A stretch of DNA of 64,000 nucleotides, taken from positions 8,799-72,798 of the forward strand of contig JAFXTB010000048.1 of NCBI GenBank assembly GCA_017525225.1, in the 5' to 3' direction. Positions 12,295 through 59,442 of this stretch are shown here, in pieces (the first letter of the stretch is position 1; each line of letters begins with the position of its first letter). The notes below the pieces were generated by a model. The model was not told the DNA's origin and made no database searches. It worked only from the letters and a program-made list of their open reading frames with translations. The position numbers were made by a program, and so were the translations under genes. The stretch comes from Kiritimatiellia bacterium (lineage in GTDB: Bacteria; Verrucomicrobiota; Kiritimatiellia; RFP12; UBA1067).

Positions 12295-12319
12295 TCATCT
12301 AACAACAAAGGAGAATGAA

Positions 12320-13504: not shown

Positions 13505-13529
13505 CCGCCACTGGCAGGGAGTGAGTGAC

Positions 13530-19957: not shown

Positions 19958-20001
19958 CGATTTGTGCAGACGTCGTATGCGCTGCGGCAGGAGGAGGTGC
20001 A

Positions 20002-21189: not shown

Positions 21190-21200
21190 TGGTGTATAAT
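21172..21200 (+). promoter_or_regulatory. sigma70-like promoter TTGCAA-17-TATAAT upstream of the mutarotase-symporter gene
   Basis: TTGCAA 21172-21177, 17-nt spacer, TATAAT 21195-21200. Confidence 0.5.
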
Positions 21201-21234
21201 GCCGTCCGTGTCAGTTGTCCAAGAGAGATTCAAG

Positions 21235-30017: not shown

Positions 30018-30045
30018 AGGCGGTGTGCCGAAGGAGGCTGGAGCC

Positions 30046-31172: not shown

Positions 31173-31202
31173 TTGCGGATTCATGCGGGAATTTGGTATA
31201 AT
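31173..31202 (+). promoter_or_regulatory. sigma70-like promoter TTGCGG-18-TGgTATAAT, 7 nt before ATG 31210 (leaderless-type)
   Basis: TTGCGG 31173-31178, TATAAT 31197-31202 with upstream TG, ATG 31210. Confidence 0.5.
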
Positions 31203-31209
31203 GGCCCAC

Positions 31210-32123: not shown

Positions 32124-33614
32124 ATGGGTATCGCAGGAGCCGGCAGGGCACTCGCCCTTGCCATAGCGGTGGCGGCGCTTGCCGCCGCCGGACATGGAGC
32201 TGTAGGCGCTCAGGACGTGATTCCGGGCGGCTGCGCGGCGTTCTCGCCGGACGGTCGGAGCATCGCGTTCCAGCGCGAGCGCGGCGACTGGTATGATCTC
32301 GTGGTACGCGACATCGCAACCGGCGCGGAGACCGTGATCGAGACAGGCGGGCCTTTCCGCGCCGGCCAGCCCGCATGGGGGCCGGACGGTTCGCTCGCCT
32401 ACATACTGTGTCCCGCCACGAACACCGCGTTCGAGGCGGCGGTCGCGAAGAGCGAGGACGGCTGCAACATCTGGCTGTGGAAGGACGGGGCCAGGCGTCG
32501 CCTCACGTGGGGACGCTTCCGCGATTCGACGCCGTCGTTCGGTCCCGACGGCCTAATCTACTTCGCCTCGTCGTTCCCCGACGGGAAGAGGGGGCTGCCG
32601 GCCCTCTTCACGGTCGATCCGTCGAAGAATGGTGCCGACGGCCGTCCGGAGAGGAAGGTGATATACAAGGCGCCGGCGATGCATTCGACGGGCGTGTCGC
32701 AGCCGACGGTCTCTCCGGACGGCAGGCTGCTCGTCTGGGCGGAGCTCGACGACTTCGAGGATGTATGGCATATCTGCGTATCCCGCGCGTCCGACACCTC
32801 CAAGGCTCAGCGGCTGACATCCTTCGGCGTGTGGGCGTACGCGCCCAGGTGGTGTCCGGATTCGCGCCACCTCGTATGCACCGCGTTCCGCGCGGGCGAT
32901 GAATCGTGGGGCGTGTTCACGGTGGACGTGCGCACGGGCGCGATGGCGCGCCTCTTCACGGGCGAGGAGCCGTCCGTATCCCCCGACGGACGCAAGCTCG
33001 TCTATGAACGCGACGGGGGAATACGTTTCGTGGACATGAAGCCGGAGTTCCTTCCGTCCGGCGACGTCTGCGGGAGGAAGGTCAGCGACGAGCCGGAACG
33101 CGTACTCCTTTCGCGCGGCGACATGGATAACAAGACGATTGTCGCCCTCGACGATTCGCTCAAGTTCGGCGCCGACCGCACGTTCTTCGTGCGCGCTGAA
33201 TTCGACTACGACGGCGATGCCTCGCTCTACCAGGACGTGGCGCGCGGAGCCTACGAAGAGAGCTCTCTCGGATTCAACCTCTATCTCGCCAAGGGGATTC
33301 CGCACTTCGGTACGCGCGACATCCGCAACCAGCACTTCCGCGTGTATTCCGGCGCGAGGTTCAGGAAGAGACACGGGGTCCTCACGGGCATACGTACGCG
33401 CGACGCCCTCTACCTGTACGTCGAGGGCGACGCCGATGGCGACAGGCTCTATTCCAAGGGCATGAGCCGCGGCGCGATCGCGCTCGACCACCCGAAGCAG
33501 ATGGTGGTGGGCGGCACCTTCAAGCCCAAGAGCCGCGTGCGAAAGATCGAGGTGGGCACGGGCTGGCCAGCCAACGTCCCGCAACCGTTCAATGGAGAGG
33601 AGCTCTTCAGATGA
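32124..33614 (+). CDS. secreted PD40/TolB-like beta-propeller protein with a C-terminal beta-sandwich-like domain (cassette copy 1)
   Basis: Signal peptide. AFSPDGRSIAFQRERGD, WGPDGSLAY, VSPDGRLLVW, VSPDGRKLVY PD40 blocks. GGGGAGG SD. Paralogs at 34812 and 42388. Confidence 0.65.
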   Translation: MGIAGAGRALALAIAVAALAAAGHGAVGAQDVIPGGCAAFSPDGRSIAFQRERGDWYDLVVRDIATGAETVIETGGPFRAGQPAWGPDGSLAYILCPATNTAFEAAVAKSEDGCNIWLWKDGARRRLTWGRFRDSTPSFGPDGLIYFASSFPDGKRGLPALFTVDPSKNGADGRPERKVIYKAPAMHSTGVSQPTVSPDGRLLVWAELDDFEDVWHICVSRASDTSKAQRLTSFGVWAYAPRWCPDSRHLVCTAFRAGDESWGVFTVDVRTGAMARLFTGEEPSVSPDGRKLVYERDGGIRFVDMKPEFLPSGDVCGRKVSDEPERVLLSRGDMDNKTIVALDDSLKFGADRTFFVRAEFDYDGDASLYQDVARGAYEESSLGFNLYLAKGIPHFGTRDIRNQHFRVYSGARFRKRHGVLTGIRTRDALYLYVEGDADGDRLYSKGMSRGAIALDHPKQMVVGGTFKPKSRVRKIEVGTGWPANVPQPFNGEELFR

Positions 33615-34804
33615 GAAGCGCAAAGACGATTCTCGCGGCGGCCGCGTGCGCCATCGCTTTTTCAGGACTCGATGCGGGGCAGCTCTACCGCGCCGCGCTC
33701 GTTGACAGCTTCGACTTCGCAAGGTACTTCGACTGCGAGACGAAGAAGGGAACTGTGCAGATAATAGACCACGTCCTCTCGCACGGCGGCAACGCCGTAT
33801 GGTGGCGCGCGAACGGCGGCGCTGTGCAGCGCTACCCTAGCAGGCTGGAGGACGGCCCGATGCTCGAGAATCCGTTCGACAAGCGCCGCCTCCCCGACGA
33901 GCGCGAGTACTACGGTTGGCTCCGACTCGATCGCGGCGAGACGAACCTCATCGCATACGCGCTCGGATGCTGCCGTGCGCGCGGAATCCCCAACGGGATA
34001 CACGTCTCGTACGAGGAGAACCACTGGAGCGCGACGATGATCGGCGGCTGGAACCTCCGCCATCCGCAGTACTGGGTGCGCACTAAGAACGGTCCGCCCT
34101 GGCCCGGCCGCGCGTCGATGGCGTTCCCGGAGGTGTTCGAACGCAAGGTCCAGATGATGGGCGAGCTCCTTGACATGGAGCCCGAATGGCTTTACATCGA
34201 CATGTGGAGGGCGGGACGCTGGTCGCTCGTGTACGAATACGTGGAGCCGATGGTGAAGGCCTGGCGCGAGAAGTACGCCTGCGAGCCGCCGGACGACCCG
34301 GAGGATCCGCGCTGGATAGAGCTTTTCGAGCCCATCCAGACGGCCTACTTCCGCGCCATCAAGCGCGAGATCGCGAAACGCGGCGGCAAGACGAAGCTCT
34401 GCGCGGGACTTCCCCACATGAACGCCGAGGAGGACGTCAACTACAAGACCCTCGCGCTCAACTGGCGCAAGCTGGCGGCGGAGGGGACGCTCGACGGGAT
34501 AGCCGTGACGAGCATACGTCTTCCCCCGAAGGCGAAGGGCGAGGCGTTGTGGGGTGTCATCCGCGACGCGTACATGTACGCGAAGAAGAACAGCGGCAAG
34601 GCCGAGACGTTCTTCCACTGCAGCATGTACGACTACCAGAAGGGCATACCGACCTACAAGGACCGCACCGGACTCTCGGCCGGGGAGTGCGCGAAGCGCC
34701 TTCTCGATCTTGCAGAGGAGTGTGGCGGCAAGGGCGTGGTGCTCGAATGCGTGGACTATCCAAACTATCCCGCCGACGTTGTGGGGGAGCTGAACAAGAG
34801 GTAG
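33611..34804 (+). CDS. secreted hypothetical protein, putative TIM-barrel glycoside-hydrolase-like (cassette copy 1 partner)
   Basis: ATGA overlap with the upstream PD40 gene. Signal peptide. Conserved blocks SHGGNAVWWR, GWNLRHPQYW, EPEWLYIDMWR, VLECVDY shared with 36299 and 43848 paralogs. Confidence 0.55.
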   Translation: MRSAKTILAAAACAIAFSGLDAGQLYRAALVDSFDFARYFDCETKKGTVQIIDHVLSHGGNAVWWRANGGAVQRYPSRLEDGPMLENPFDKRRLPDEREYYGWLRLDRGETNLIAYALGCCRARGIPNGIHVSYEENHWSATMIGGWNLRHPQYWVRTKNGPPWPGRASMAFPEVFERKVQMMGELLDMEPEWLYIDMWRAGRWSLVYEYVEPMVKAWREKYACEPPDDPEDPRWIELFEPIQTAYFRAIKREIAKRGGKTKLCAGLPHMNAEEDVNYKTLALNWRKLAAEGTLDGIAVTSIRLPPKAKGEALWGVIRDAYMYAKKNSGKAETFFHCSMYDYQKGIPTYKDRTGLSAGECAKRLLDLAEECGGKGVVLECVDYPNYPADVVGELNKR

Positions 34805-34811
34805 CGAACCC

Positions 34812-36302
34812 ATGGAACGGACGACGCGAATCATGATCTCCACGGCCATGCTGGCGGCCGCCATCACCTGCGGAGCATCTGCCGCTCGGGCGGCCGGAGC
34901 GTCCATCGCGGGCGACTGCGCCGTGTTTTCGCCGGATGGCGGACGCATCGCCTTCCAGCGCGAGCGCGGCGACGCATTCGACCTTGTGGTGCGCGACCTG
35001 TCCACCGGCGAGGAGACGCTGGTCGAGAAGGGCGGGAAGGTGATCGCGGGCCAGCCGGCGTGGGGGCCGGACGGCTCGCTCGCCTACGTAATGATGCCCG
35101 CCACCAACACCGCGTACGAGGCGGCGGTCGCCAAGAGCGAGGACGGAAGCAACCTGTGGCTGTGGAAGGACGGCGCCAGGCGCCGGATCACCTGGGGGCG
35201 GGTGCACGATTCCACGCCGTCGTTCGGTCCGGACGGACGCATATACTTCGCCTCGGCCTGCGGCTACGCGCAGAGAAAGGCCGGCACGCCCGCCCTGTTC
35301 GTCGTCGATCCCCGCGAGGCCAGGCCGGAAAGGAAGATGATATACTTCGCCCCGAACGCGCGTACGATATGCGTGTCGACGGGCGTCTCGCAGCCCTCCG
35401 TCTCGCCGGACGGCAAGCTGCTTGTCTGGACCGAGATCAACGCCCTGGACGACGTATGGCACATCTGCATCGCCAGGCTCTCGGATCCGGCCGGCACGAT
35501 GCGCCGCCTGACGCCTTTCGCCATGTGGGCGTATTCGCCCCGCTGGTGCCCCGACGGCCGGCACGTGGTCTTCACCGGGTTCAACGCCGGGGACGATGGG
35601 TGGGGAGTGCATGTGGCCGATGCGCGTACCGGGGCGATCAAGCGCCTCTTCCCGGGCGAAGAGCCGTCCCTTTCCGCCGATGGGCGGCGCATCGTCTTCA
35701 CGCGCGACGCGTCGCTGAGGTTCGCGGACGTCACGCCGGACACGTTCACCTTCCGTGCCGGGGATTCCCGCTCCCAGCCCTGGGACGAGCCGGAGCGGTT
35801 GCTGCTTGCGAAGACGAACATGACGAATTCGATGTCCGCAGCCCTCGGGGACGACTTCAAGTTCGGCAGCGACCGCACGTTCTTCGTGCGGGCGGAGTTC
35901 GACTATGACGGGGACATCTCGAAGAACCACGACATCGTCCACGGCATCTACAAGGAGAGCCATATCGGATTCCACCTCTATCTCATCAAGGGTACGCCGA
36001 ACTTCGGCACGCGCTACCCGGACAACAGGCATCTGCATATATGCTCCAACGGCAAGTTCAAGGACCGCCACGGCATGCTGACGGGCATTCGCACCAAGGA
36101 CGCCATCTACCTGTACGTCGAGGGTGGCGGGTTCTACTCCAAGGGCCTGGGCAAAGGGGCGATCGCCCTCGACCATCCGATCCGCGTCGAGGTAGGCAAC
36201 GCGCTTTCCGGTTCGGTCAGTCTCGTGCGAAAGCTCGATATCGGAACCGGGTGGCCTGTGAACGTGCCAAAGCCATTTGCTGGAGAGGAGCTGTTCAAAT
36301 GA
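34812..36302 (+). CDS. PD40/TolB-like beta-propeller protein (cassette copy 2)
   Basis: About 65-70% identical to 32124..33614 by eye (AVFSPDGGRIAFQRERGD..., same C-terminal FFVRAEFDYDGD block). Confidence 0.65.
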   Translation: MERTTRIMISTAMLAAAITCGASAARAAGASIAGDCAVFSPDGGRIAFQRERGDAFDLVVRDLSTGEETLVEKGGKVIAGQPAWGPDGSLAYVMMPATNTAYEAAVAKSEDGSNLWLWKDGARRRITWGRVHDSTPSFGPDGRIYFASACGYAQRKAGTPALFVVDPREARPERKMIYFAPNARTICVSTGVSQPSVSPDGKLLVWTEINALDDVWHICIARLSDPAGTMRRLTPFAMWAYSPRWCPDGRHVVFTGFNAGDDGWGVHVADARTGAIKRLFPGEEPSLSADGRRIVFTRDASLRFADVTPDTFTFRAGDSRSQPWDEPERLLLAKTNMTNSMSAALGDDFKFGSDRTFFVRAEFDYDGDISKNHDIVHGIYKESHIGFHLYLIKGTPNFGTRYPDNRHLHICSNGKFKDRHGMLTGIRTKDAIYLYVEGGGFYSKGLGKGAIALDHPIRVEVGNALSGSVSLVRKLDIGTGWPVNVPKPFAGEELFK

Positions 36303-37531
36303 AAACCTTGCATTCATCCGGGGAACTTACGGCGGCAAGGCGTTTCGCCCGTGCATCGCGCATGGCGTTCGCGGCGGCGCTTGCCGTGGCGGCGCTGCCG
36401 GCAAGCGGCCTCTACAGGGCCGCGCTCGTCGACAGCTTCGACTTCGCCCGCGTCTTCGACTGCGAGACGAAGAAGGGGTCCGAGCAGATAATCGCGCACG
36501 TCCTCTCGCACGGCGGCAACGCGGTGTGGTGGAGGTCCAACGGCGGGGCCATCCAGCGCTATCCCAGCAGGTTCGAGACGGGGGCTGCCCTGAACAGGCC
36601 GTTCAACAAGCTGCTGCCGCCCGACGAGCGCGAGTTCTACGGATGGCTGCGGCTCGACCGCGGCGAGACGAACCTGATAGCGCACGTCCTCGGCTACTGC
36701 CGCGAGCACGGCATCCCGAGCGGCATCCATACGGCCTACGAGGAAAACCACAACAGCATAAAGTGGATAGGCGGATGGAACTCCCGCCATCCGCAGTACT
36801 GGTCGCGCACAAGGAAGGGCATCCCATGGCCGGGGAGGACGTCCATGATGTTCCCGGAGGTGTTCGAGCGCAAGGTGAAGATGATGTGCGAGCTGCTGGA
36901 CATGGAGCCGGAGTGGCTCTTCCTGGACATGTGGCGCTGCTGCTGGTCGCTCGTATACGAGTATGTGGAGCCTATGTGCGCGGCATGGCGCGAGAAGTAC
37001 GGATGCGAGCCGCCGGAAGACCCGCAGGATCTCCGCTGGGTCGCGCTCTTCGAGCCGGTCCAGACGGCGTTCTTCCATGCGATCAGGCGCGAGATAGCGG
37101 CGCGCGGCAGCAAGACGAAGTTCTGCATAGGACTGCCGTACATGACGCCCGAAGAGGACATCAACTACAAGAGGCTCGGGCTCAACTGGCGCCAGCTCGC
37201 GGCCGACGGAACGGCCGACGCGCTCGCGGTGATGTGCGTACGCCTGCCGAAGGACGCGAAGGGTGAGGCCGTATGGGAGGCGACGCGCGCCGCGTACAGG
37301 CACGTCTACGAAAACCGGGGCAAGGCGGAGGTGTTCTACCATTGCAGCATGTATGACGGCGGCCAGGTTTGCATTCCGGCCTACCGCAAGCGTACGGGTC
37401 TTTCCAACGGCGAATGCGCCAAGCGCTTCCTCGACCTCGCCGAGGAATTCGGCGGCAAGGGCGTGGTGCTGGAGTGCGTGGACTACGGAAACTATCCAGA
37501 CGATGTCGTGAAGGAACTGAACAAGAGGTGA
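36299..37531 (+). CDS. putative glycoside-hydrolase-like secreted protein (cassette copy 2 partner)
   Basis: ATGA overlap. Close paralog of 33611..34804 (LYRAALVDSFDFARVFDCETKKGS..., EPEWLFLDMWR). Confidence 0.55.
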   Translation: MKTLHSSGELTAARRFARASRMAFAAALAVAALPASGLYRAALVDSFDFARVFDCETKKGSEQIIAHVLSHGGNAVWWRSNGGAIQRYPSRFETGAALNRPFNKLLPPDEREFYGWLRLDRGETNLIAHVLGYCREHGIPSGIHTAYEENHNSIKWIGGWNSRHPQYWSRTRKGIPWPGRTSMMFPEVFERKVKMMCELLDMEPEWLFLDMWRCCWSLVYEYVEPMCAAWREKYGCEPPEDPQDLRWVALFEPVQTAFFHAIRREIAARGSKTKFCIGLPYMTPEEDINYKRLGLNWRQLAADGTADALAVMCVRLPKDAKGEAVWEATRAAYRHVYENRGKAEVFYHCSMYDGGQVCIPAYRKRTGLSNGECAKRFLDLAEEFGGKGVVLECVDYGNYPDDVVKELNKR

Positions 37532-37650
37532 GAAGGGTCTGAAGCCATGAAAGTTGTAGACATGAAGCATTTCGTTTCCCGCGTTATGCCGGTAGCAGGT
37601 GTTTGTGAGGTAGTGAGGTGACTTGACTTGACTCGATGGAACAGGTTTAC

Positions 37651-37699
37651 GAAGGTTGTGAAGGTTGTGAGGGTTGTGAGGGTTGAGAAGGTTGTGAAA
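37651..37699 (+). repeat. 5 x 9-bp tandem repeat GARGGTTGW immediately upstream of the RBS of giant gene 1
   Basis: gaaggttgt gaaggttgt gagggttgt gagggttga gaaggttgt read directly. ATG at 37714. Confidence 0.8.
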
Positions 37700-37713
37700 A
37701 GAAAGGAAAAAAG

Positions 37714-40700
37714 ATGAAGACGATACGGACTCTTGAGGCGTCAAGGGGAGTGAAGGGTTTTGCAATGCTGGCCCTTCTTGCATCAATTTCGCTTCCCGGC
37801 GCGTTGCATGGCGCCAACTACACCTACACCTGGACCTGGACCGGCAATGGCGACGGCATTACCTGGTCGGACGGCGGCAACTGGACATGTTCCCCGTCCG
37901 GAGCGGCGTACGAATACCCGTCCACGGTGGAGGACTTTGTCAAGTTCAACTCGAAAGTCGGCGGCGGACTCGTGGTGACGTCTCGTCTGGATGAAGCCGT
38001 GACGATATATGGAATCCTGCAGAGCGGTTCCGACCCGTTGCTGCTTACCACGACCAACGATTCGCAATTGACGTTCAGCATACATTCCGGGGGCGATGTC
38101 GAGTCGATGTACGACGGTGTGTGCGTCGATCAAGGCTCGACGCTCTACCTGGACGTCCCCATCGTGATGGATAGACGTTTCGACAAATGGGGTGGTGGTA
38201 CGGTCTACTGGCAGAGGAGCTTCGTGAACGGAGTCAATACCTCGTCGGCGAGGTACAACTTTATAGGAGGTGCCGGGACGAACTTCCTCGTCGGAAACTT
38301 CTCTTTGACGGGGGGAAGCAAGATGGATTCCAACTTCGGGTTTGGCGCCGACGTCGGGAAATGGACGTATTTGTACGTGCAGGACAACGCATCGCTGGAA
38401 TGCTACAGACTGAAGCTGGGCACGAGCCGTTCGGCACCCAACATATTGTTCAGGCAGGATGGCGACGGTACCAGGGTCGTGGCAAGCGACTTTCTTGGAA
38501 TAGGCAATTTCACGGATGGAAATCACAATGACTGGAGTACGTCCGTATACCACATGGTGCGGGGGACTCTTTCGGCATCGTACATGAACCTCGCGCCAGG
38601 GCGACCGGGACGCTACGTACAGGATGGCGGTACGGCCACGGTGTCATACGTCTCGTGTGGCGCGGAAGTAAGATCGTATGGATCGTTCGAGTTGAATGGC
38701 GGGCGGTTCGTAGACACCTCGGGCGACTCTTCCGCAGACATGTTCTGCTCCATTTCGTCCCCCAGATTCGACGTGTCTCTTACAGGCGGCACGCTGGCAT
38801 TCACGGGCGAGCCTGTGATCAGGCGGCGCCTCCGCCTTTCAGGTTCGCCTTCGATAGAGATGGCATCGGGCAAGGCGGTGCAATTCCGCGCGGCGCCCGA
38901 CATCGCCGCCGGAACATCGCTGACGAAGACTGGTCCGGGAACGATGAGGATCATGACGGATTTCCCGGCGGTCGGGTCGTTAACGGTGGAGGAAGGGGCT
39001 GTCTATCTGGGCTATAGCAACGCCTCGCAGCGGTACGGGGTCTATGGCGCGTACGACGACTATACGCCGTGGCATGTCAAGATCAAGAATGGCGGCTTGC
39101 TCGGCTGGCATGAAGCGACGACCTCGATCACCTCGTACTTCTACCAGCCGATGGATCTCGATATCGATGACGGTGGATGCTTCAGCTTCTACTCCCACCG
39201 TACCGCGGCGTTCGCGCATTCTCTCACTGCGAACGGCGTCAAGGTGGCTCGCGGCGTGTATCGCGCCACCAAGACCGGTCACATCAGATGTTCTGGAACC
39301 GAGAATATCGCCCACATGATAGTGCCCTACACCTGGACTGGTGGTGGCGACGGGGTGTCGTGGACCGATACGGCGAACTGGGAGGACGGAGCCGTGCCTC
39401 CGAACGTCAGTGCATCAGACTTTAATGTGCCATACGCCGACCTCTCCCGCGCCACCAACATCACATTCACCTCCAACATCACCATCGGCGGCATCCTCTA
39501 TTCGCCAAACGGCGCCAACAAGAGGCTCGTCATCTCCAGCGACACGGCGACCTTGAAGCTGGCCCCTCCAAACTACCAGATTTCCTGCCAGATACGCCCT
39601 GATGCTACGCTTGAATTCGACTGCAAGGTCGCGCGTTACAAGACGTGCGGACTTGTCGGCAACGGCACGTACGTCTTCCGCCGGAACATCCCTGGGGCGT
39701 TCCTGAAAAAGACCGGATTCGACAATGACTTCATGCTGTCCCTCGTGGTCGACGGCACGTTGATCCTCCGTGGCGTGAAGGAGTGTATTCCTGAAAGCTC
39801 GAACCACACCACGGCGCTCGGATTCCACTCAAACCAGTCGGGAAGCGAATCGACGATCGTCTTCGAGGGTGAAGATACCGACTTCGCCCTGAACTACCTG
39901 TTTTTCTCCAGGGGCGGGTACACGGGCATGAACCGCTACATCCAGCGCGACGGGGCGAAGCTCACGGTGACGAACTTCTGCGTGAACACGCATCGTACCG
40001 AGCAGGAACCGAAGCGGTACTACCTGCAGGGCGGCACGCTTACATGCGTGGAAGGGCTGTTCCTCAACACGAACCTGAGCTCCACGGTCTCTTCCTGCAA
40101 CCGCGTGCCGGGCGGCAGCTTCGAAATGACGGGCGGCACGCTCACGACCCCGCAGATCGGGAGCGAGTGCCTGCAGAACTGGTGCTATCTCAACGGCGGC
40201 GACGCATACGTGGGAGCTGGCGGCATATCGCGGACGTGCTGCACGAACGGCTATGGCGGGATGGACAAGCAGTACCAGAGCCAGAGTGCCTACAATCTGA
40301 AGACCGGCGAGATCCTCTACAACACCACGCCGTCGCTACAGCTGGGCGGGGTGAACCTGCATGCCTCGGCCGACTTCTCTGTTACGCTGGACACCGCCTT
40401 CAGCGGCGTGGGCGGAGCGACTACGATCGATACCGCCGGGCACGACATAACGTTCGAGGGCTGCGTACTTGCCGGGACCGGCGGCTGGCGCAAGATCGGA
40501 GAAGGAACCCTTTACCTCAACGGCACGAACAGCTTCACGGGCGCGATGTCCGTGGAGGCGGGCACGGTCGTCGTAGGGGCGGAGGCCGTGAACGAATCCG
40601 CTCCGGCGAGGCTTGAACTTGCCTCCGCCTCTTCCCTCTCGCTTCCCGCGGGAGCGGCGTGGACGGTCGAGACGCTGATCGTGGGCGGGGTCCGCAAGGC

Positions 40701-42060: not shown

Positions 42061-42108
42061 GGTTGAAAAGTAGAAAGGTTGAAAGGTTGAAAAGTTGAAA
42101 GGTTGAAA
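42061..42108 (+). repeat. 6 tandem copies of GGTTGAAA(A) immediately after the giant-1 stop
   Basis: ggttgaaaag tagaaa ggttgaaa ggttgaaaa gttgaaa ggttgaaa read directly. Confidence 0.8.
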
Positions 42109-42174
42109 TTCCGCCGTCCGCGCTGGCGCTGGAATGTAAATGAGGATAAGTTTAATGAGGCAGTCGCAAAACCC

Positions 42175-42247
42175 GGTAGGGCGGTCGCCCCGCGACCGCC
42201 GCGGGCGGCGCGGGGCGCCGTCCCTACCATGTGTGCGCGGGGTTTTT
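42175..42247 (+). terminator. GC-rich imperfect long inverted repeat (GGTAGGG...CCCTACC, about 54 nt) followed by CGCGGGG-TTTTT: candidate rho-independent terminator of giant 1
   Basis: Arms 42175-42181 / 42222-42228 with extensive internal complementarity. T5 at 42243-42247. Confidence 0.5.
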
Positions 42248-42248
42248 G

Positions 42249-42340
42249 CAATTGCCTCAATTGTTCACAAGTTTCCAATCTCAATTTGTATTTGTGACAA
42301 TGGTGGCATTTGTGAACAATTGAGATTTGTGAACATTCAA
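42249..42340 (+). promoter_or_regulatory. AT-rich island with iterated ATTTGTGA(A)CAA motifs (3 direct, 1 inverted) and three CAATTG palindromes: candidate multi-site regulator-binding region or promoter for 42388
   Basis: TTGTTCACAA 42261-42270 (inverted). TTTGTGACAA 42291-42300, TTGTGAACAA 42310-42319, TTGTGAACAT 42327-42336 (direct, 17-19 nt apart). Confidence 0.4.
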
Positions 42341-42387
42341 GTTACAGGCAAGGTTGAAAAGTCAAACGAGAACAAGATGGAGCAGAG

Positions 42388-43851
42388 ATGAAACTTGAAG
42401 CAATGGTTGCAAGTGTGGTGACCATATCCTTTGCCGCCGCACCCGACCCAATCGAGAATGCGAGCGCCGGCGTGTTCTCGCCCGATGGCCGGTATCTGGC
42501 GTTCGAGAGGCAGGACGGCTGGGACAGGCATCTGGGCGTAATGGACCTAGAGTCGCGAAAGGTGGAATGGGTGGAGAACGGCCCTGGTCTCGCGGGGCTT
42601 GCAAGCTGGGGGAGTGATGGATCGCTTGTCTATACCGCAGGGAATGTGACGAACACCGCGTTCGCGGGCGAGCGGCTGAAGTCCGAGGACGGCTTCGGCA
42701 TCCGCATCTGGCGGCGCGGAAAGGGCGTGCGCGAATTCACGAAAGGCCGCCGCCGCGATGCCACGCCATCCTTTTCGCCCGACATGAAGACCCTGTACTG
42801 GGTTTCCCCGGAAGGCAACACGCAGCATCGGCTCGCGCAGATATACATGTGGTCTGCCCCGGTGGACGCGCCGGAGCGACGCAGGCGCATCCTGACCCAG
42901 CAGATGCACTACATCGACGCCAGCGCGAACCAGCCGCAGGTGTCGCCGGATGGAAGGCTGCTCGCCTGGGCGCATCTCGACAGCATCCGCGACCGCTGGG
43001 GCATCAGGGCGGCGGCGATAGGCGATCCGAACCACAACGTGCCGATCACGGAGCCGGAGGCATCCGCATTCGAGCCTCGATGGAGCGCGGACGGCCGCTA
43101 TCTCGTATACACGGCGTTCAAGGACGGCGATCCCACATGGTGCTGCTACATCCAGGAACTGTCCTCCGGCGCGACCCGCAACCTGGGTCCCGGGCGCGAA
43201 CCCTGCCTTTCACCGGACATGCGCACTCTGGTGCGCACGCTTGACGGCAGGCTCGTTTTCACCCCGCTTTGCGCGAACGACCTGCCGCACGGGCCGAAAG
43301 TCGGTGCGGACCACCCGTCGCACGAGGCTGAGAAGGTGTTCTTCTCCGAGCGTCCGGTCGCAAGACGCCATTTCAGCGCAAAGGCCACCAGTGGCTTCGT
43401 TCTCGGCGCAGGGCGCACGTTCTTCGTCCGGACCAGGATCAGATGGACCGGCAAGCCGTTCAGCGGCGATGCGACCGTCATATCCGCCAAGTACGACGAG
43501 TGCTCCCAGGTCGCATTCCGCCTGGTGATGCAGGATTCTGTGCCGAACTTCTGGTGGCTCAACCGCGACAGGCAGGCCGTCCGCGTGCCGATGCCTGGAC
43601 CGCTGGAACCGGGCGAGCACGAGATCACCGCGGTACGCACCGCCACCGTCGTGTATCTGTCGGTCGACGGCTCCGAACCTATTCTGCAGCAGATGCGCGA
43701 AGGCCATCTGCCGCTCGACCATCCCCGGGGGATGGGGACGGGATCTATCTTCGAGCGCGACGACGACAAGCGTGTGCTCTCCATCGAGGTGGGTACAGGC
43801 TGGCCGGTCAACGTTCCGAAACCTGCAACCAGAAGGGATCTGCTGTCATGA
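42388..43851 (+). CDS. PD40/TolB-like beta-propeller protein (cassette copy 3, more divergent)
   Basis: VFSPDGRYLAFERQDG, SPDMKTLYW, VSPDGRLLAW, WSADGRYLVYTA. C-terminal GTGWPVNVPKP block shared with copies 1 and 2. GGAG SD. Confidence 0.65.
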   Translation: MKLEAMVASVVTISFAAAPDPIENASAGVFSPDGRYLAFERQDGWDRHLGVMDLESRKVEWVENGPGLAGLASWGSDGSLVYTAGNVTNTAFAGERLKSEDGFGIRIWRRGKGVREFTKGRRRDATPSFSPDMKTLYWVSPEGNTQHRLAQIYMWSAPVDAPERRRRILTQQMHYIDASANQPQVSPDGRLLAWAHLDSIRDRWGIRAAAIGDPNHNVPITEPEASAFEPRWSADGRYLVYTAFKDGDPTWCCYIQELSSGATRNLGPGREPCLSPDMRTLVRTLDGRLVFTPLCANDLPHGPKVGADHPSHEAEKVFFSERPVARRHFSAKATSGFVLGAGRTFFVRTRIRWTGKPFSGDATVISAKYDECSQVAFRLVMQDSVPNFWWLNRDRQAVRVPMPGPLEPGEHEITAVRTATVVYLSVDGSEPILQQMREGHLPLDHPRGMGTGSIFERDDDKRVLSIEVGTGWPVNVPKPATRRDLLS

Positions 43852-45071
43852 TGCGACATGAATGCACGCTGCTTTGCGCACTCGCGCTGGCACTGGCAAC
43901 GGCCGATGGCAGGGCCGCCTCGCCGAGGTGCCCGCATGAAGCCACGCCCCGCTTCGAGAAGATCGCGCTCATCGACAGCTACGACTTCGTCAGGTATTTC
44001 GACTGCGAGACGAAGACCGGCACCGTGCAGGTGGTGGAGAACGTCGCCGGGCAGGTAGGCGCGACGCATCTTCTCTGGCGTCACCAGACAGGGGGCATCC
44101 CGCGCTATCCTTCGGCGGAGGAATCGAGCGTTATCCATCGGATGCCATTCGAGAAGCGGGTCGTGGAGGTAAACAACATCCACGGATGGAGCGATCTCGC
44201 CAAGGGCGAGACGAACCTGCTGGCGTACGCGATCGAGCAGATAGCCGCGCACGGATTCGTGGCGGGGATACATCATACATGGGAGGAGAACCACTTCCAG
44301 AGCCGCACATGCAGCCAGTGGAACCTGGACCATCCCGAATACTCCACCAGGTCGCTGCACGGCATAGCAAGGCCGGGCTACACGAGCTCGCTTGCATACG
44401 AGGAGGTGCTGGCGCACAAGCTCCGCCGCTTCGATGAGGTGCTTTCCACCGGACCTTCCATGATCTACATCGACATGTGGCGGCAGGGCGGATGGTACGC
44501 GAGGCTGGAATACGTTAAGCCGATGTGCGACCGCTGGCGCAGCCGCTACGGCTGCGAACCGCCCGAGGATGCGTCCGACGAAAGATGGCTCGCGCTCGTG
44601 GCGGAATGCAACCATCGCTACATCAGGGCGATGCGCGCGCGCATGGACGCGACCGGCCGCCCGATGCAGCTAGTGCTCGGGATCCCGTACTGCGACCTCG
44701 AAGACAAGGAGCTATGGCGGCGCTATGCAGTGGACTGGAAGGCGCTTGCGGCCGACGGCACCGTGGATGCCATCTCGGTGATGAGCGTCAGGCCGGACGA
44801 GAAGCGCATCTGGGATTCCACCCGGGAGATATACGAATACGTCTACCGCAACCGAGGCAGGGCCAAGGTCTACTTCCCGGTGTCGCAGTACAACTTCACC
44901 TTCGGCATCCCCTCGTACTGCAAGGCGACAGGCCTCAAGGGCGAAGAGGTCGCCGCAAGGCTTCTCGATCTCGCCGCATCGTGCGGCGGGGCCGGCGTGA
45001 CGTTTGAATGCGTGGACATGTACAACTATACCGATGCCATGCGCGAAGTCATAAGGAGGTTCCACAGATGA
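43848..45071 (+). CDS. putative glycoside-hydrolase-like secreted protein (cassette copy 3 partner)
   Basis: ATGA overlap. Paralog of 33611 and 36299 (IALIDSYDFVRYFDCETKTGTVQ, GETNLLAYA, YIDMWRQGGW, TFECVDMYNY). Confidence 0.55.
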   Translation: MMRHECTLLCALALALATADGRAASPRCPHEATPRFEKIALIDSYDFVRYFDCETKTGTVQVVENVAGQVGATHLLWRHQTGGIPRYPSAEESSVIHRMPFEKRVVEVNNIHGWSDLAKGETNLLAYAIEQIAAHGFVAGIHHTWEENHFQSRTCSQWNLDHPEYSTRSLHGIARPGYTSSLAYEEVLAHKLRRFDEVLSTGPSMIYIDMWRQGGWYARLEYVKPMCDRWRSRYGCEPPEDASDERWLALVAECNHRYIRAMRARMDATGRPMQLVLGIPYCDLEDKELWRRYAVDWKALAADGTVDAISVMSVRPDEKRIWDSTREIYEYVYRNRGRAKVYFPVSQYNFTFGIPSYCKATGLKGEEVAARLLDLAASCGGAGVTFECVDMYNYTDAMREVIRRFHR

Positions 45072-45100
45072 AGAGGGCCTCGTTGTCATAGGCCTTGGAA

Positions 45101-45127
45101 TTGACAGGGGGAAAGAAATCGTATAAT
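45101..45127 (+). promoter_or_regulatory. sigma70-like promoter TTGACA-15-TATAAT upstream of giant gene 2
   Basis: TTGACA 45101-45106, TATAAT 45122-45127. ATG 45161. Confidence 0.4.
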
Positions 45128-45160
45128 ATACGCATAACAACCCAAGAAAGGTAGAAATCC

Positions 45161-48100
45161 ATGGCAACAGGAAAAGCACTCAATGGAAAGCCGCATGCGG
45201 GAAATCCGCACGTACGGTTTGATGAGGGGGGAGTCGTACCGTCGGCAACGCCGAGGCGTGGGTCTCTACTCTACAAGAATGTTGAGGCGTTGCGGAGCGC
45301 AAGGGGCGCCATGCTTGCCCTGTTTGCGTCGTTTTCGTTTGTCGGCGCGTTGCATGGCGCCAACTACACCTACACCTGGACCTGGAACGGCAATGGCGAC
45401 GGCGTGACCTGGACGAACGGAAGCAACTGGACATGTTCCCCTGCCGGAGCGGCGTACGAATACCCGTCCACGGTCGAGGACATAGCCAAGTTCAACTCAA
45501 AAGTCGGCGGCGGGCTCGTGGTGACGTCGCGTCTGGACAAGGCCGTGACGCTATATGGAATCATGCAGAGCGGTTCCGATCCGGTTGTGTTGACCACGAC
45601 GAACAATTCGAGCCTTGCTTTTGGCCTGCGTTCGGGAGCGGTCGTGGCGATCGACTACGATGGAATCGTGGCGAAGGCCGGCACTACGCTCTATCTGGAC
45701 GTACCCATAGTGATGAACCAGCGCTTCGACCGCTGGGGCGACGGCACGGTGGTATGGTCGCACAGCATATCCAACGGCCTCGACAAGACCGGCACCTACA
45801 TGAGCAATTTCTTCGGCGGCAACGGTACGAACATCTTCACAGGCGACTTCACGTTTCTGGCTAACGCCAGTTCCGCTTACTCTTTCGGATATGGGGGGAA
45901 GCCCGGCAGGTGGGCGTATTCGATCCAGCAGGACAACGCCTCGTTCTCGACGAAGGAGCTGAAGGTCGGCAACAGCAGGTCGTGCCCCAACGCCGTGTGG
46001 CGGCAGGATGGCGATGCCACCATCACCTCGGTCACGAACCTCTATGTCGGCAACAACACGGATACGGACGACTGGAGCACGTCCGTCTATCACATGGTGC
46101 GCGGAACGCTTTCTGCCTCATCGAAGCTGAATCTGGGCAATGGCCGCCCCGGGTATTTCGTGCAGGACGGTGGAACCGCCACGGTGGCGATGGTGGAATG
46201 CGGCACGGGCGCGCGTTCGTACGGAGGTCTCGAGGTACGGGGCGGAAGGTTCGTGATGAACGGCACGATGGACTTCGGAAAGGAGGGGAGGTTCGACTTC
46301 ATCCACAGCGGCGGCACGTTCGTCGTCCCGGTCGCCTTGACGCTCAACGACACGGTGAAGCTTTCGGGCTCCCCAACGCTCGAAGTCGCGTCCGGAAAGA
46401 GCCTGACGCTTCGCCGTTCGCCGCAGATCGCCGCAGGCACTTCGTTGACGAAGACCGGCGCCGGCAAGGTCTACATACAGGCCGACGTGCCGGCACGGGG
46501 ATCGCTGACGGTTGCCGAAGGCGAGATCGCGATCGGCAACGGCGGCGCCTATACGGACCGCATGGGCATACTGGGCGCGTACGACGACTACGAGCCCTGG
46601 CAGGTGACGATCAAGAACGGAGCGTCGCTGGGCTGGCAGTCATCCGGCTATTCCATAACCGCGTACTACTACAAGCCCATGGATCTCAACATCGAGGATG
46701 GCGGGCGGTTCTACTTCCACAACCACCGTACGGCGGCGTTCGCGCACTCCCTCGTGACGAACGGCGTGGCGCTTCCGCGCGGCACATACACCACGGCTCC
46801 CAACTCCCCGCTATACAGTACCAGCGAAAAAGGTCTCTCACATATGATCGTGCCGTATACGTGGACGGGCGGCGGCGACGGGACCACCTGGACAGATCCC
46901 TTGAACTGGGAGGATGGCGCCGTGCCGCCGAACAATGCGACAGGGTCGGAAAGCGGGGTGTTCGCCGACCTTTCGCGCGCCACGAACATAACGTTCTCGG
47001 CGAACATAGCCATAGGCGGCATCCTCTATGCCCCATGCGGCGCCAATAGGCGGCTTGTGATCTCCAGCCAGACTGCCTCCTTCAAGCTCGACCGTGCCAG
47101 CTACCATACGTCCTGCATGGTCGTGCCCGATGCGACGCTCGAGTTCGACTGCAAGGTGTTGCGCCGGGCCACTGTCAGCATGGTGGGCAACGGCACGTTC
47201 GTATTCGACAGATATGTCCTGGGGTCCACGCTCGCGGCCAGCGGGTTCAATAATAACTACATGCCGATATTCTGCATCGACGGTACCGTCATATACCGCA
47301 ACGCGACGGAGTTCACGCGCTTCGACGAGAGTTCGTCCTACCGCCGGGCGGTCGCATGGCACGCCAACCAGTCCGGTTCCGAGGCTCGCATCATATTCGA
47401 GGGCGAGGATACCGATCTTGAATACGATCTGTTCATGTGGTCGCGTGGTGGCTATACGAGCGCCAACTGGGTGTACCAGCGCGGAGGGGCGAACATCACG
47501 GTCTCCAACTTCTGCATGAACACATGCCGCAATGATGGACAGAAACCACAGCGCTACTATCTGCAGGATGGTACGCTCACATGCGTGGAGGGCATCTATC
47601 TGAACAAGAACGTGGCGGATGGCGTCTCGTGCTGCCAGAACTATCCGGGAGGGGACTTCGAGATGACAGGCGGCACGCTGACCACTCCGCTGATGGGCAG
47701 CGAATGCCTGCAGAACTGGTACTATCTGAATGGCGGCGATCTCTACATCGGCGCGGGTGGCATCGTGCGCACGTGCGATACGCGGAACTATGCCCCGACC
47801 GATTCCAAGACGAAGGGCGCGTACGATGCGACCACCGGTCTGCCTCTCTACAACACCACGCCGTCGCTCCAGCTTGGCGGCGTAAGGCTGCATGCGACGG
47901 CCGACTTCTCCGTCTCGCTCGATACCGCCTTCAGCGGCAAGGGCGGTGCGACGACTATCGATACCGCCGGTCACGACATAACGTTCGAAGGATGCGTCCT
48001 GACTGGTACCGGCGGCTGGCGCAAGATCGGCGAAGGCACCCTCTACCTCAACGGTACCAACAGCTTCACGGGCGCGATGTCCGTGGAGGCGGGCACGGTG

Positions 48101-49558
48101 AGCATCGGCGCAGGCGCCGTGAACGAAGCCGTCCCGGCGAGAATCGAACTCGCCTCCGCCTCCTCGCTCTCGCTTCCTGCAGGTGCGGCCTGGACGGTCG
48201 AGACACTGATCGTGGGCGGGGTCCGCAAGACTGCCGGTGAAAGCGTGACGTTCGGCGAAGGCTCGGTGACGGTGGCGCAGCCTGCAACGCTCGCCGCAGG
48301 CCGCTGGATAGGCCCTGCCGCCGGCGGCGACTGGCTCGCGACGTCCAACTGGTCCGATGGCGTGATACCCAACGGCAAGACGGCGTCCGCGGATCTCAAG
48401 GGCACGTCGCTGGCGGATGGGGCCCGGATCACGTTCGCCTCGGACATCGTTCTCGGCGGGCTTGATGTGGACGTCCCCGGGACGATAACGCTCGCAGCCA
48501 CGGATGGCGCGTGCATACTTCTCACCAATGCCACGGTGACCGTCTCGCCGGAGACGACGCTCGTGTTCGACTCGCCTGTGGTGGTGGGTGCGTCGAAGAA
48601 CGGCAACAGTCCCGTGTATGTGGCTGGCGGCGGCAGGGTGGTGTTCGCAAAGGAGGTCCTCGACCAGGTCGGCGCCAGCTCCAAGCATCGCATGATGGTG
48701 GATGATGGCACGGTGGCCGAATTCCGCGATCAGCTGCAGGGCGTGACGCTCGAGGCCAGGTCCGCGCACTGGCAGACGTCCTGGGCGGACATCATTGTCG
48801 CCGAAGGCGGGGATTTGAATCTTGCAAATAGCGTGCTTGCGGGTGGCGCCGTACGCATGACGCAGACCGGCGGCAAGGTCGCCGTGACCAACTCGTTCGT
48901 CCTTGCCGGGGCTTGCAGCACGCAGACGCGCTGCTACCACACGCTCGATTCGGGCGAGCTGCTTGTGGCAAACGGCTGTACTCTTGGCGGCGGATGGACA
49001 GGTGACATGCGGCTGTATCTCAATGGCGGTGTTATCAAGACGTCCGGCCAGGGCACGGCGTTCAAGTCAGACCTGCTGGTGACGCTGGGGGGCGCCGTCA
49101 CATTCACGCAGGCTGACGCCAAGACCGATTCGAGATTCGACAACGACTTCTACGGAGAGGGGAGCATCACGCAGGCGGGGCCGGGCCGCGCCACGTTCAC
49201 AGGCATCCAGTCGGCCGTCACGTCGTACACGGTCCTGGGCGGAACGCTGGCGATACAGGGTGCGGCGGCGGCCACGAACCTGACCGTCACGGCAGGCACT
49301 CTGTCCGTGGGCGGGGCGGCTGCGGCCACGATCCCGCCGACCGCTTCGCTGAGCCTCCGGCGCACAGGTAAGCTCAACCTCGATTTCGACGGCGAACTCG
49401 TAGTACGCAAGCTTCGCGTAGGTAGCTACAGCATGGCGGCGGGCATATACGACGACGGCACGCGCTACACCACACCGCTTTCGCAGTACATCACGGGACC
49501 CGGCGTGCTGCGCGTGCTGGAAGGCCACGGCCCCGGCCTGCATCTGTTTGTGAGGTGA
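45161..49558 (+). CDS. giant secreted PATR-type surface protein, 1465 aa (giant 2, paralog of giant 1)
   Basis: Same architecture and long near-identical stretches to giant 1. C-terminal tail GVLRVLEGHGPGLHLFVR. Confidence 0.75.
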   Translation: MATGKALNGKPHAGNPHVRFDEGGVVPSATPRRGSLLYKNVEALRSARGAMLALFASFSFVGALHGANYTYTWTWNGNGDGVTWTNGSNWTCSPAGAAYEYPSTVEDIAKFNSKVGGGLVVTSRLDKAVTLYGIMQSGSDPVVLTTTNNSSLAFGLRSGAVVAIDYDGIVAKAGTTLYLDVPIVMNQRFDRWGDGTVVWSHSISNGLDKTGTYMSNFFGGNGTNIFTGDFTFLANASSAYSFGYGGKPGRWAYSIQQDNASFSTKELKVGNSRSCPNAVWRQDGDATITSVTNLYVGNNTDTDDWSTSVYHMVRGTLSASSKLNLGNGRPGYFVQDGGTATVAMVECGTGARSYGGLEVRGGRFVMNGTMDFGKEGRFDFIHSGGTFVVPVALTLNDTVKLSGSPTLEVASGKSLTLRRSPQIAAGTSLTKTGAGKVYIQADVPARGSLTVAEGEIAIGNGGAYTDRMGILGAYDDYEPWQVTIKNGASLGWQSSGYSITAYYYKPMDLNIEDGGRFYFHNHRTAAFAHSLVTNGVALPRGTYTTAPNSPLYSTSEKGLSHMIVPYTWTGGGDGTTWTDPLNWEDGAVPPNNATGSESGVFADLSRATNITFSANIAIGGILYAPCGANRRLVISSQTASFKLDRASYHTSCMVVPDATLEFDCKVLRRATVSMVGNGTFVFDRYVLGSTLAASGFNNNYMPIFCIDGTVIYRNATEFTRFDESSSYRRAVAWHANQSGSEARIIFEGEDTDLEYDLFMWSRGGYTSANWVYQRGGANITVSNFCMNTCRNDGQKPQRYYLQDGTLTCVEGIYLNKNVADGVSCCQNYPGGDFEMTGGTLTTPLMGSECLQNWYYLNGGDLYIGAGGIVRTCDTRNYAPTDSKTKGAYDATTGLPLYNTTPSLQLGGVRLHATADFSVSLDTAFSGKGGATTIDTAGHDITFEGCVLTGTGGWRKIGEGTLYLNGTNSFTGAMSVEAGTVSIGAGAVNEAVPARIELASASSLSLPAGAAWTVETLIVGGVRKTAGESVTFGEGSVTVAQPATLAAGRWIGPAAGGDWLATSNWSDGVIPNGKTASADLKGTSLADGARITFASDIVLGGLDVDVPGTITLAATDGACILLTNATVTVSPETTLVFDSPVVVGASKNGNSPVYVAGGGRVVFAKEVLDQVGASSKHRMMVDDGTVAEFRDQLQGVTLEARSAHWQTSWADIIVAEGGDLNLANSVLAGGAVRMTQTGGKVAVTNSFVLAGACSTQTRCYHTLDSGELLVANGCTLGGGWTGDMRLYLNGGVIKTSGQGTAFKSDLLVTLGGAVTFTQADAKTDSRFDNDFYGEGSITQAGPGRATFTGIQSAVTSYTVLGGTLAIQGAAAATNLTVTAGTLSVGGAAAATIPPTASLSLRRTGKLNLDFDGELVVRKLRVGSYSMAAGIYDDGTRYTTPLSQYITGPGVLRVLEGHGPGLHLFVR

Positions 49559-49592: not shown

Positions 49593-49653
49593 AAGTCCAT
49601 GCCGTCGGCAGAAGTCCAGTTGAAAGGTTAGACGATAACAAGAAGGAGCAGAG

Positions 49654-51249: not shown

Positions 51250-51260
51250 GGAAGAACGGA

Positions 51261-53090: not shown

Positions 53091-53165
53091 AACAATGAAG
53101 AAACAACTGCCGGTCGCTTCTGTCGCGGCATTTTCGTTCGCAATGAAAAAGAGAAAATCCCGGCA

Positions 53166-59432: not shown

Positions 59433-59442
59433 AAAGCGGGAT

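Follow-up and report, generated by a model that had tools for sequence, protein, structure and literature searches.

A conserved, translationally coupled gene pair encoding a PD40 β-propeller and a GHL10/GH156-like (β/α)8 barrel, a putative exported glycosidase module, in a Kiritimatiellia genome

Introduction

Glycoside hydrolase family GH156 comprises inverting exosialidases, for which the roles of individual active-site residues have been described (PMC6811678). The GHL10 family (PF02638) is represented by only a handful of reports, on Cwp19 of Clostridioides difficile (PMC5765458, PMC6016235) and on DogH (PMC9967864). Cwp19 is an S-layer protein of a Gram-positive host, with cell-wall-binding repeats and no propeller partner, and a His/Arg-containing dyad has been discussed for it (PMC5765458). 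Here we describe a pair of genes, A and B, that occurs three times in a 64,000-nucleotide stretch of DNA from a Kiritimatiellia bacterium (GenBank assembly GCA_017525225.1, contig JAFXTB010000048.1, positions 8,799 to 72,798 of the forward strand; the whole stretch is referred to below as the window). The product of B is, by profile comparison, a distant relative of GHL10 and GH156, and that of A is a PD40 β-propeller protein with a likeness to TolB.

An original prediction for the window, made from its letters and open reading frames (ORFs), had proposed a triplicated three-gene cassette in which a PD40 propeller protein, a coupled secreted hydrolase-like protein of about 400 residues and a giant PATR-repeat protein formed a dedicated, undescribed surface module analogous to the starch utilisation (Sus) systems of Bacteroidetes. 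For A and B, the analysis shows how far the pair is conserved, coupled and fused, which folds and remote relatives the proteins have and what export signals they carry.

Results and discussion

All nine ORFs on which the original prediction was built were found on the plus strand at the coordinates given there, without internal stops, and a GC content at third codon positions of 0.73-0.87 in a genome of 63% GC was in favour of these frames being real genes. Six of the nine make up the three A-B pairs:

A1, 32124..33614, plus strand: predicted exported protein, with a PD40 propeller of six blades and TolB type at residues ~33-304 and a β-sandwich at residues ~326-480
B1, 33611..34804, plus strand: putative glycosidase, predicted to be exported, with a GHL10/GH156-like (β/α)8 barrel; joined to A1 by an ATGA overlap
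A2, 34812..36302, plus strand: 61% identity to A1
B2, 36299..37531, plus strand: 73% identity to B1, ATGA-coupled to A2
A3, 42388..43851, plus strand: 33-35% identity to A1/A2, a different subfamily
B3, 43848..45071, plus strand: 41-42% identity to B1/B2, ATGA-coupled to A3

As predicted, all three A/B junctions in the window are ATGA stop/start overlaps. The third pair stands apart from the other two (BLASTP identity 35% for A1/A3 and 42% for B1/B3), and the closest relatives of A3 and B3 were found in other genomes (44-58%) and not among A1, A2, B1 and B2, the nearest neighbour being the same locus for both (L061, from another genome).

B relatives were collected by a pattern scan of one genome per species, which found 102 and left 80 loci for analysis, and hidden Markov models (HMMs) were built for B and, in A, for the propeller and the C-terminal domain. 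Going by record titles, the loci came from Kiritimatiellia (31), unclassified 'Verrucomicrobia' (11), Lentisphaerae/Victivallales (8), Planctomycetota (10), Armatimonadota (12), Zipacnadia (2), Hydrogenedentota (1) and other groups (5). An A gene adjoined B on the same strand for 71 of the 73 informative B genes in these species-representative genomes; in 63 cases it was upstream and separate, in six it was fused with B into one ORF and in two it lay downstream. The A-to-B junctions (n = 73) comprised 43 ATGA and three GTGA/TTGA overlaps, giving 46 stop/start overlaps of 4 nt, together with 17 gaps of at most 30 nt, six fusions and four larger gaps. The A and B genes co-evolve: the pairwise identity matrices of the A propeller and the B barrel correlated with r = 0.908 over 65 pairs (Mantel test, 0/999). 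Thus, on sequence evidence, it is the A-B pair, and not the triad, that is the real conserved unit, and it spans at least six phyla. The literature searched does not describe the pair, and the claim of a dedicated, undescribed module therefore stands for A-B; its placement at the cell surface is not supported, the signals seen being of Sec and lipoprotein type only.

Metagenomic examples cover every arrangement of three domains, propeller, LamG and B. Propeller-B fusions occur in P0032 and P0072, a LamG-B fusion (P0088) precedes a PD40 gene, and in locus L004 a separate LamG gene is likewise followed by B and then by a PD40 gene. In P0228, a further metagenomic protein of 809 residues, residues ~15-495 form a GH156-like barrel and residues 535-808 of the same chain an A-type propeller (HMM E 9e-72), an arrangement that ties the propeller partner to the GH156-like family as well. 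The source genome itself, from a gut member of the Kiritimatiellae, holds at least five A-B pairs, which are diverged. Elsewhere in this metagenome-assembled genome (MAG), whose locus tags begin with IKO72_, three tandem FGE-sulfatase (formylglycine-generating-enzyme-like) genes lie directly 5' of another ATGA-type A-B pair (L087, 4393-8505), and locus L088 (7722-10004) encodes, as does P0099, an A variant whose PD40 propeller is preceded, at the N-terminus, by a Y_phosphatase3 (tyrosine-phosphatase-like) domain.

B1, B2 and B3 gave no Pfam or NCBIfam match, PF02638 included at E ≤ 0.01, and a direct phmmer search of the PDB with B1 also found nothing, GH156 structures included. The AlphaFold model of B (predicted local distance difference test score, pLDDT, 90.6; predicted template modelling score, pTM, 0.89) is a (β/α)8 barrel that starts directly after the signal peptide, and hydrophobic signal regions were seen in 33 of 37 B proteins. 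The structure nearest to this model was Cwp19 (PDB 5OQ2), with a barrel of the same type at 12% sequence identity. The TIM-barrel-like fold and the hydrolase likeness proposed for the 400-residue protein were thus borne out, since both the model and its nearest structure are of a glycosidase-like barrel. An alignment of 37 B-family members contained ~35 invariant residues, mostly charged or aromatic, among them D32, D35, D41, E43, R66, R74, H131, E135, H138, H151, R200, E209, D232, D295, E379, C380 and D382. PF02638 was matched by 15 of these 37 members at E ≤ 0.01, weakly to moderately (best E 3.4e-8), and one B homologue in L004 has an unmarked precomputed GHL10 match.

Comparison of the B profile with that of the GH156-like family by hhalign gave probabilities of 96.9% in local (E 1.7e-10, B residues 108-314) and 98.4% in global mode. 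The likeness is convincing only with the family profile; against the single sequence of X1, a GH156-like protein of the same locus described below, the probability was 4%, too weak, and against EnvSia156 (PDB 6RZD) the E value of 0.12 was not significant. The GH156 acid His134 was aligned to the invariant H138 of B in four independent alignments, and in the hhalign alignment with the GH156-like family R200 of B corresponded to Arg202 and E135/E136 to Asn131/Asp132. D32 and D35 of B are invariant after the first strand, and the GH156 base Asp14 stands at the end of β1. In contrast to GH156, B lacks the ~110 extra C-terminal residues of the 511-residue 6RZD chain, and the PD40 partner that consistently accompanies B was found with only one of 150 GH156-like representatives. 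B resembles Cwp19 in having no obvious second catalytic carboxylate on β7, but differs from it in having a propeller partner and not cell-wall-binding repeats. Because GH156 Arg129, Arg246 and Asn346 are replaced and Asp14 is unmapped, B is set apart from GH156, and the profile evidence makes it a separate family within a GHL10/GH156 superfamily rather than a GH156 member. The statement that neither this family nor the C-terminal domain of A matched anything nameable thus holds for B1-B3 against Pfam and NCBIfam; it no longer applies to B as a distant relative of GHL10 and GH156, or to the A domain, which is probably lectin-like by its model.

PD40 was significant in A1, A2 and A3 (E 1e-20 to 1e-22), and the model of A (pLDDT 90.6) has a six-bladed propeller followed by an all-β domain of ~150 residues. 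Hydrophobic signal regions were present in all 36 of 36 A proteins, and lipobox-like motifs, with their Cys, in 17 of the 36. The PD40 six-bladed propeller is what A shares with TolB. In contrast to TolB, A has no N-terminal TolA-binding α/β domain, its propeller beginning just past the signal peptide; it carries the C-terminal β-sandwich; its score against NCBIfam TIGR02800 is 65 bits, compared with a cut-off of 343; and its neighbours in the window are glycan-related, with no tol-pal genes among them. A-family members also weakly match the Pfam DPPIV_N, Peptidase_S9_N and Tricorn_N/2nd models. As in dipeptidyl peptidase IV (DPP-IV)/prolyl oligopeptidase and tricorn, a PD40/DPPIV_N-type propeller is here joined to, or would work with, a hydrolase domain, but the partner is a glycosidase-like TIM barrel and not an α/β-hydrolase peptidase, and A and B are usually separate polypeptides. 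The gating of DPP-IV/tricorn-type hydrolases by their propellers is well established and serves only as an analogy for A-B.

According to its model, the C-terminal domain of A is probably a lectin-like β-sandwich. LamG (PF13385) was matched by one of 36 A members at E ≤ 0.01, weakly in one homologue, and clearly in relatives that have this domain either as a gene of its own next to B or joined to B in a fusion. In Foldseek searches full-length A aligned to propeller-plus-lectin enzymes (trypanosomal sialidases, GH32, GH43), but with high root-mean-square deviation. A was considered as a GH33-type sialidase and rejected as such, the likeness being a generic six-blade similarity. The invariant positions of the propeller are mostly PD40 structural motifs of SPDG type, and therefore give no hint of a catalytic role for A. 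A linker to B was likewise considered for its conserved GTGWPxNVPKP tail and rejected; the tail is absent from the propeller-B fusions and thus belongs to the β-sandwich domain. In A1 and A2 the C-terminal G-E-E-L-F-[RK] is encoded by GGAGAGGAGCT..., a Shine-Dalgarno-like stretch ~10 nt before the start of B (33590-33614, 36278-36302), so that part of the conservation of the tail may serve the translation of B.

The pairs lie in a string of plus-strand genes in the order SGNH esterase, NanA-like lyase, A1-B1, A2-B2, G2, A3-B3, G3, X1, X2, X3 and G4. Upstream of the string are a BNR_2 protein, a NanM-SSF fusion, a GH88-containing protein of 1496 residues and a DUF4838 protein, and farther downstream of G4 are a second NanA-like lyase and a GH78-like gene. 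Members of this neighbourhood outside the pairs and the three giants are:

19894..21189, plus strand: BNR_2 (sialidase-type propeller) protein, context
21199..23817, plus strand: NanM (sialate mutarotase)-SSF symporter fusion, context
30007..31146, plus strand: SGNH/GDSL esterase (GxDLY + Lipase_GDSL_3, Pfam), upstream member of the A-B gene string
31183..32106, plus strand: NanA-like lyase (DHDPS family), 17 nt 5' of A1; Pfam DHDPS E 3e-46
49654..51249, plus strand: X1, GH156-family candidate exosialidase; lipoprotein-type signal; all key GH156 residues
51288..53090, plus strand: X2, ~600 residues; weak match to a twin-arginine translocation (TAT) signal (Pfam E 0.019, below cut-off)
53166..54551, plus strand: X3, 461-residue exported protein; no family match
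60521..61585, plus strand: second NanA-like lyase (DHDPS family)

The best NCBIfam match of the NanA-like lyase 5' of A1 is N-acetylneuraminate lyase (170 bits, below the cut-off). The second NanA-like lyase begins with a twin-arginine-like signal, MSEIRLNRRGFLGTAAAASIGAMASAPVHAA, which would place a sialate-lyase-like enzyme outside the cytoplasm. NanA-like lyases also lie within 10 kb of an A-B pair in 13 further loci, and the NanM-SSF family near A-B in nine others. The latter, a fusion of a NanM-type (Kelch) mutarotase with a sodium/solute symporter, was seen in L003, L028, L057, L059, L078 and others. With the window included where a family is present in it, the recurrent neighbours of A-B are AraC regulators (16 loci), NanA-like lyases (14), NanM-SSF fusions (10), sulfatases (8), ceramidase-like proteins (8) and GH156-like proteins (4). 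These annotations point to exported glycan degradation with a sialic-acid flavour. A family of ~530 residues with no Pfam match and weak NCBIfam similarity to β-1,2-mannobiose phosphorylase was also found near A-B, giants and GH156-like genes in six loci (L011, 6190-7740; L018, 5227-6789; L019, 111-1709; L031; L045; L049).

X1 is a clear GH156 homologue (phmmer E 1.6e-14 against 6RZD) with a family of 2494 representatives at E ≤ 1e-3. Its R147, H152, R223, R272, N373 and W187 correspond to GH156 Arg129, His134, Arg202, Arg246, Asn346 and Trp164. D46, at the end of β1 and conserved in 50 of 53 family sequences, is the presumed equivalent of Asp14, the N-terminus of the reference not being in the comparison. 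A GH156-like protein with all the key residues, a candidate exosialidase of that family by sequence, is thus encoded in the same locus as the A-B pairs. No family could be assigned to X2 or X3 even at E ≤ 5, apart from the TAT-signal match of X2. Elsewhere in the window, a paralogue of the SGNH/GDSL esterase lies at 12113-13504, and next to it the GH88-containing protein (13521-18011) is a fourth protein of ~1500 residues, unrelated to G2-G4, in which GH88 is confined to the last ~220 residues and the ~1250 N-terminal residues have no family match. A class II tRNA-synthetase-like gene (59323-60381) holds a 9-nt tandem repeat, CCCAACCCT x6.8, at 59825-59885.

We consider it reasonably probable that A-B is a glycosidase module of two exported proteins within a utilisation locus of sialoglycan type, with B as the catalytic protein and A as a propeller/lectin partner that probably binds it. 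The hydrolase activity, the A-B complex and the class of substrate are what we infer from sequence and model. B would be the catalytic subunit, an exported (β/α)8-barrel glycoside hydrolase of a distinct, uncharacterised family in the GHL10 (Cwp19)/GH156 superfamily. A would be its non-catalytic partner, built of a TolB-type six-bladed propeller and a lectin-like β-sandwich and made in step with B through translational coupling; it would probably bind B and help to recognise, hold or gate a glycan or glycopeptide substrate. The pairs of this genome, at least five and diverged, presumably differ in specificity, and the three in the window, lying in a sialoglycan-type (nonulosonic-acid) locus, would most likely cleave off a terminal sugar that is acidic or decorated in some other way.

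Several points weigh against this reading. The role of A is a guess from architecture alone, its conserved residues being mostly the structural motifs mentioned above. The carboxylate triad of GH156 is not retained in B, in which Arg129 is replaced by S133 (consensus Pro) and Asn346 by the invariant C380, only Arg202 being kept; Arg246 is also replaced, by Gly. With two of the three carboxylate-binding residues lost, a sialic-acid substrate is not implied by the active site. An equivalent of Asp14 could not be mapped in B, the global hhalign alignment being off by one βα unit and the N-terminal sub-alignment having an E value of 0.18. GHL10 is itself functionally ill-defined, hydrolysis of peptidoglycan (PMC5765458) and of starch (PMC9967864) being the activities reported for it. 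The counts of sialic-acid genes near A-B are raw, without a genome-wide background, and many A-B loci have none of the recurrent glycan-gene neighbours. Finally, some pairs stand away from any evident glycan locus, as does the L088 pair, which, with its Y_phosphatase3-bearing A, sits among housekeeping genes; its B is still coupled by a 4-nt overlap.

A bolder form of the two-protein module can be put forward tentatively, as a possibility we would sooner doubt than accept. A-B would then be an obligate two-subunit glycosidase of a new kind, in which a TolB-type propeller/lectin subunit is seated on a bare GH156/GHL10-like barrel and delivers substrate to it or gates its entry. It would represent a new CAZy family and quaternary architecture across at least six phyla, possibly specific for decorated or non-canonical nonulosonic acids beyond the reach of GH33 and GH156.

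A more specific alternative, which we regard as rather unlikely, is that B is an inverting, GH156-like exo-hydrolase of sialic or other nonulosonic/ulosonic acids, such as N-acetylneuraminic acid (Neu5Ac) variants, 2-keto-3-deoxynononic acid (KDN), 3-deoxy-D-manno-octulosonic acid (Kdo) or pseudaminic/legionaminic acid (Pse/Leg), with His138 as the acid and the window pairs covering different linkages or decorations. The profile homology to the GH156-like family, the invariance of the His134 and Arg202 equivalents and the presence of three invariant arginines in B (R66, R74 and R200) would fit such an enzyme, as would the NanA-like lyase directly 5' of A1, the NanM-SSF, BNR and GH156-like genes of the window and the recurrence of the first two families near the pair. 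However, the replacement of Arg129, Arg246 and Asn346 leaves the carboxylate triad incomplete, Asp14 is unmapped, the nearest structure is that of Cwp19 and not of GH156, and most A-B loci have no sialic-acid genes within 10 kb.

The giants that follow the second and third pairs, and the third giant farther downstream, were found as predicted:

G2, 37714..42060, plus strand: 1448-residue Gly/Thr/Ser-rich exoprotein; one PATR match; three W..W..NW module starts
G3, 45161..49558, plus strand: 1465-residue paralogue of G2 (58%)
G4, 54624..59135, plus strand: 1503 residues; a distant paralogue (26-28%) of G2 and G3, whose C-terminal motif it shares

The Pfam PATR model (PATR/TIGR02601) gave one significant region each in G2 (E 9e-9) and G3 (E 2e-7) and none in G4, whereas the motif W..GGG.DG.W....NW, which starts modules of ~480 residues, occurs three times in G2, three times in G3 and twice in G4. 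The PATR-type repeats of the original prediction were therefore recovered in part, as a domain match in two giants and as a motif in all three. Like PATR proteins of Planctomycetes-Verrucomicrobia-Chlamydiae (PVC) bacteria, the giants are Gly/Thr/Ser-rich with an N-terminal signal peptide. They differ from PATR/type Va autotransporters in that no autotransporter domain (C-terminal β-barrel translocator) was detected in G2-G4 even at E ≤ 5, and in their shared short C-terminus, G.G.L.VL.G-x(5-6)-hhhh-[RK]; the classical autotransporter was therefore rejected as a description of them. Distant matches carry the source names 'beta strand repeat-containing protein' and 'autotransporter adhesin', and a search for G2 homologues gave at least five matches with a word index that saturates on this low-complexity sequence.

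All giants of this family end in a conserved G.G.L.[VI]L.G-x(4-8)-four or five hydrophobic residues-[RK]-COOH, for example GRGVLRVLEGFGPGLQLFVR, with no transmembrane helix, PEP-CTERM motif or β-barrel. The motif lies at 41998-42057, 49496-49555 and 59073-59132 in the window and occurs also in L011, L018, L019, L045, L057, L059, L066 and L067. The corresponding regular expression found ten proteins in 85 sequences scanned, all of them giants, and missed a similar end in L019. This C-terminus could be an undescribed sorting or secretion signal.

Giants of the G2-G4 family were found within 5 kb of an A-B pair in eight of the 80 other loci (~10%), upstream or downstream and often with genes between, and in 72 of the 80 there was none within 10 kb. 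Their closest paralogue within the MAG, P0211 (48%), comes after a GH16 gene, and the 10 kb upstream of it contain no A-B pair; G4 follows the three unrelated genes X1-X3 (49654-54551). G2 and G3 are 58% identical, compared with 33% (A) and 41% (B) for the pairs that precede them, and the closest relatives of A3 and B3 are in other genomes; the three-gene cassette was therefore not copied as a unit. A recent triplication was likewise rejected, since the copies are old, diverged paralogues; the name of a triplicated three-gene cassette also overstates the case, as one of the three pairs has no giant behind it. The giants do not belong to the A-B module, and by sequence are separate PATR-type β-strand-repeat exoproteins, restricted to a sublineage and standing beside various glycosidase genes. 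The role we infer for them is that they are probably adhesins or scaffolds.

Two noncoding features lie at the boundaries of the giants:

42166..42249, plus strand: GC-rich hairpin followed by UUUUU, a terminator-like element at the G2/A3 boundary (-61 kcal/mol, z -3.5)
45101..45129, plus strand: σ70-like promoter match, TTGACA-17-TAATAT, between B3 and G3, a consensus match alone

Purine-rich tandem repeats flank G2, with GAAGGTTGT x5 just before its start and AGGTTGAA x6 just past its stop (repeat regions 37651-37698, 42060-42108 and 42262-42335). Words like AGGTTGAAA also occur 5' of A3, X1 and G3, with 15 matches in the window against 4.4 expected. Three copies of TTTGTGAACA in an AT-rich stretch before A3 could be the site of a regulator. 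A3 and X1, each 3' of a giant, share a nearly identical ~35-nt 5' leader and first ~12 codons (MKLEA[MV][VI]AS.V; 42353-42425 and 49619-49691), while the two proteins are otherwise unrelated, which suggests either a regulatory or translation-start cassette or a recombination scar.

That giant, propeller and barrel form one dedicated Sus-like surface machine, in which a glycan captured by the giant is handed on by the propeller and cut by the barrel, is quite improbable. The locus does resemble a Bacteroidota Sus-like polysaccharide utilisation locus in that genes for regulators, transporters and exported proteins of glycan degradation are clustered and share one orientation, G2 and G3 do follow B2 and B3, and giants do stand near A-B in the eight loci given above. 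However, no SusC (TonB-dependent transporter) or SusD Pfam families were found in the window genes scanned, the organism belongs to the Kiritimatiellae, and the role of the giants as a capture scaffold is unsupported. In addition, the giant is not a fixed third member, being absent from most loci and variable in position, P0211 and G4 follow genes other than A-B, G2 and G3 are more alike than their pairs, and the terminator-like hairpin parts G2 from A3 while a promoter-like site lies 5' of G3.

It is more improbable still that the pair serves envelope housekeeping, with a TolB-like periplasmic A and a Cwp19-like peptidoglycan or exopolysaccharide hydrolase B acting on the cell's own wall or matrix and not on nutrients. 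The L088 pair, which adjoins a penicillin-binding protein (PBP) gene, is what such a role would lead one to expect, but five diverged pairs per genome are not, and neither are recurrent neighbours such as AraC regulators, sulfatases, lyases, transporters and other glycosidases; A also lacks the TolB N-terminal domain and a tol-pal context. Least probable of all is that A is catalytic in its own right, as a lyase or hydrolase of the propeller type known from PL22, GH33, GH32 or GH43, and takes one of two successive steps with B in place of forming a single enzyme with it, since the propeller-plus-β-sandwich architecture that Foldseek matched to GH33, GH32 and GH43 enzymes and the weak PL22 (Pectate_lyase22) matches in two of 36 A members are outweighed by invariant positions that are PD40 structural motifs and by the lack of any sialidase Asp-box, RIP or arginine-triad pattern in A.

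Conclusions

The Kiritimatiellae, Lentisphaerae, Planctomycetota and Armatimonadota are prolific and poorly understood glycan degraders of guts, digesters and sediments, with enzyme repertoires that are in large part unannotated. This analysis also corrects the view of the giant PATR proteins, which appear as general companions of glycosidase genes outside the A-B module. The pair itself can be recognised by sequence alone, although B escapes Pfam and NCBIfam in this genome. Because A and B are almost never apart, are usually translationally coupled and are sometimes fused, they offer a concrete target for enzyme discovery. B could yield a new glycoside hydrolase family related to the GH156 sialidases, and A-B could exemplify a glycosidase that depends on a β-propeller partner.

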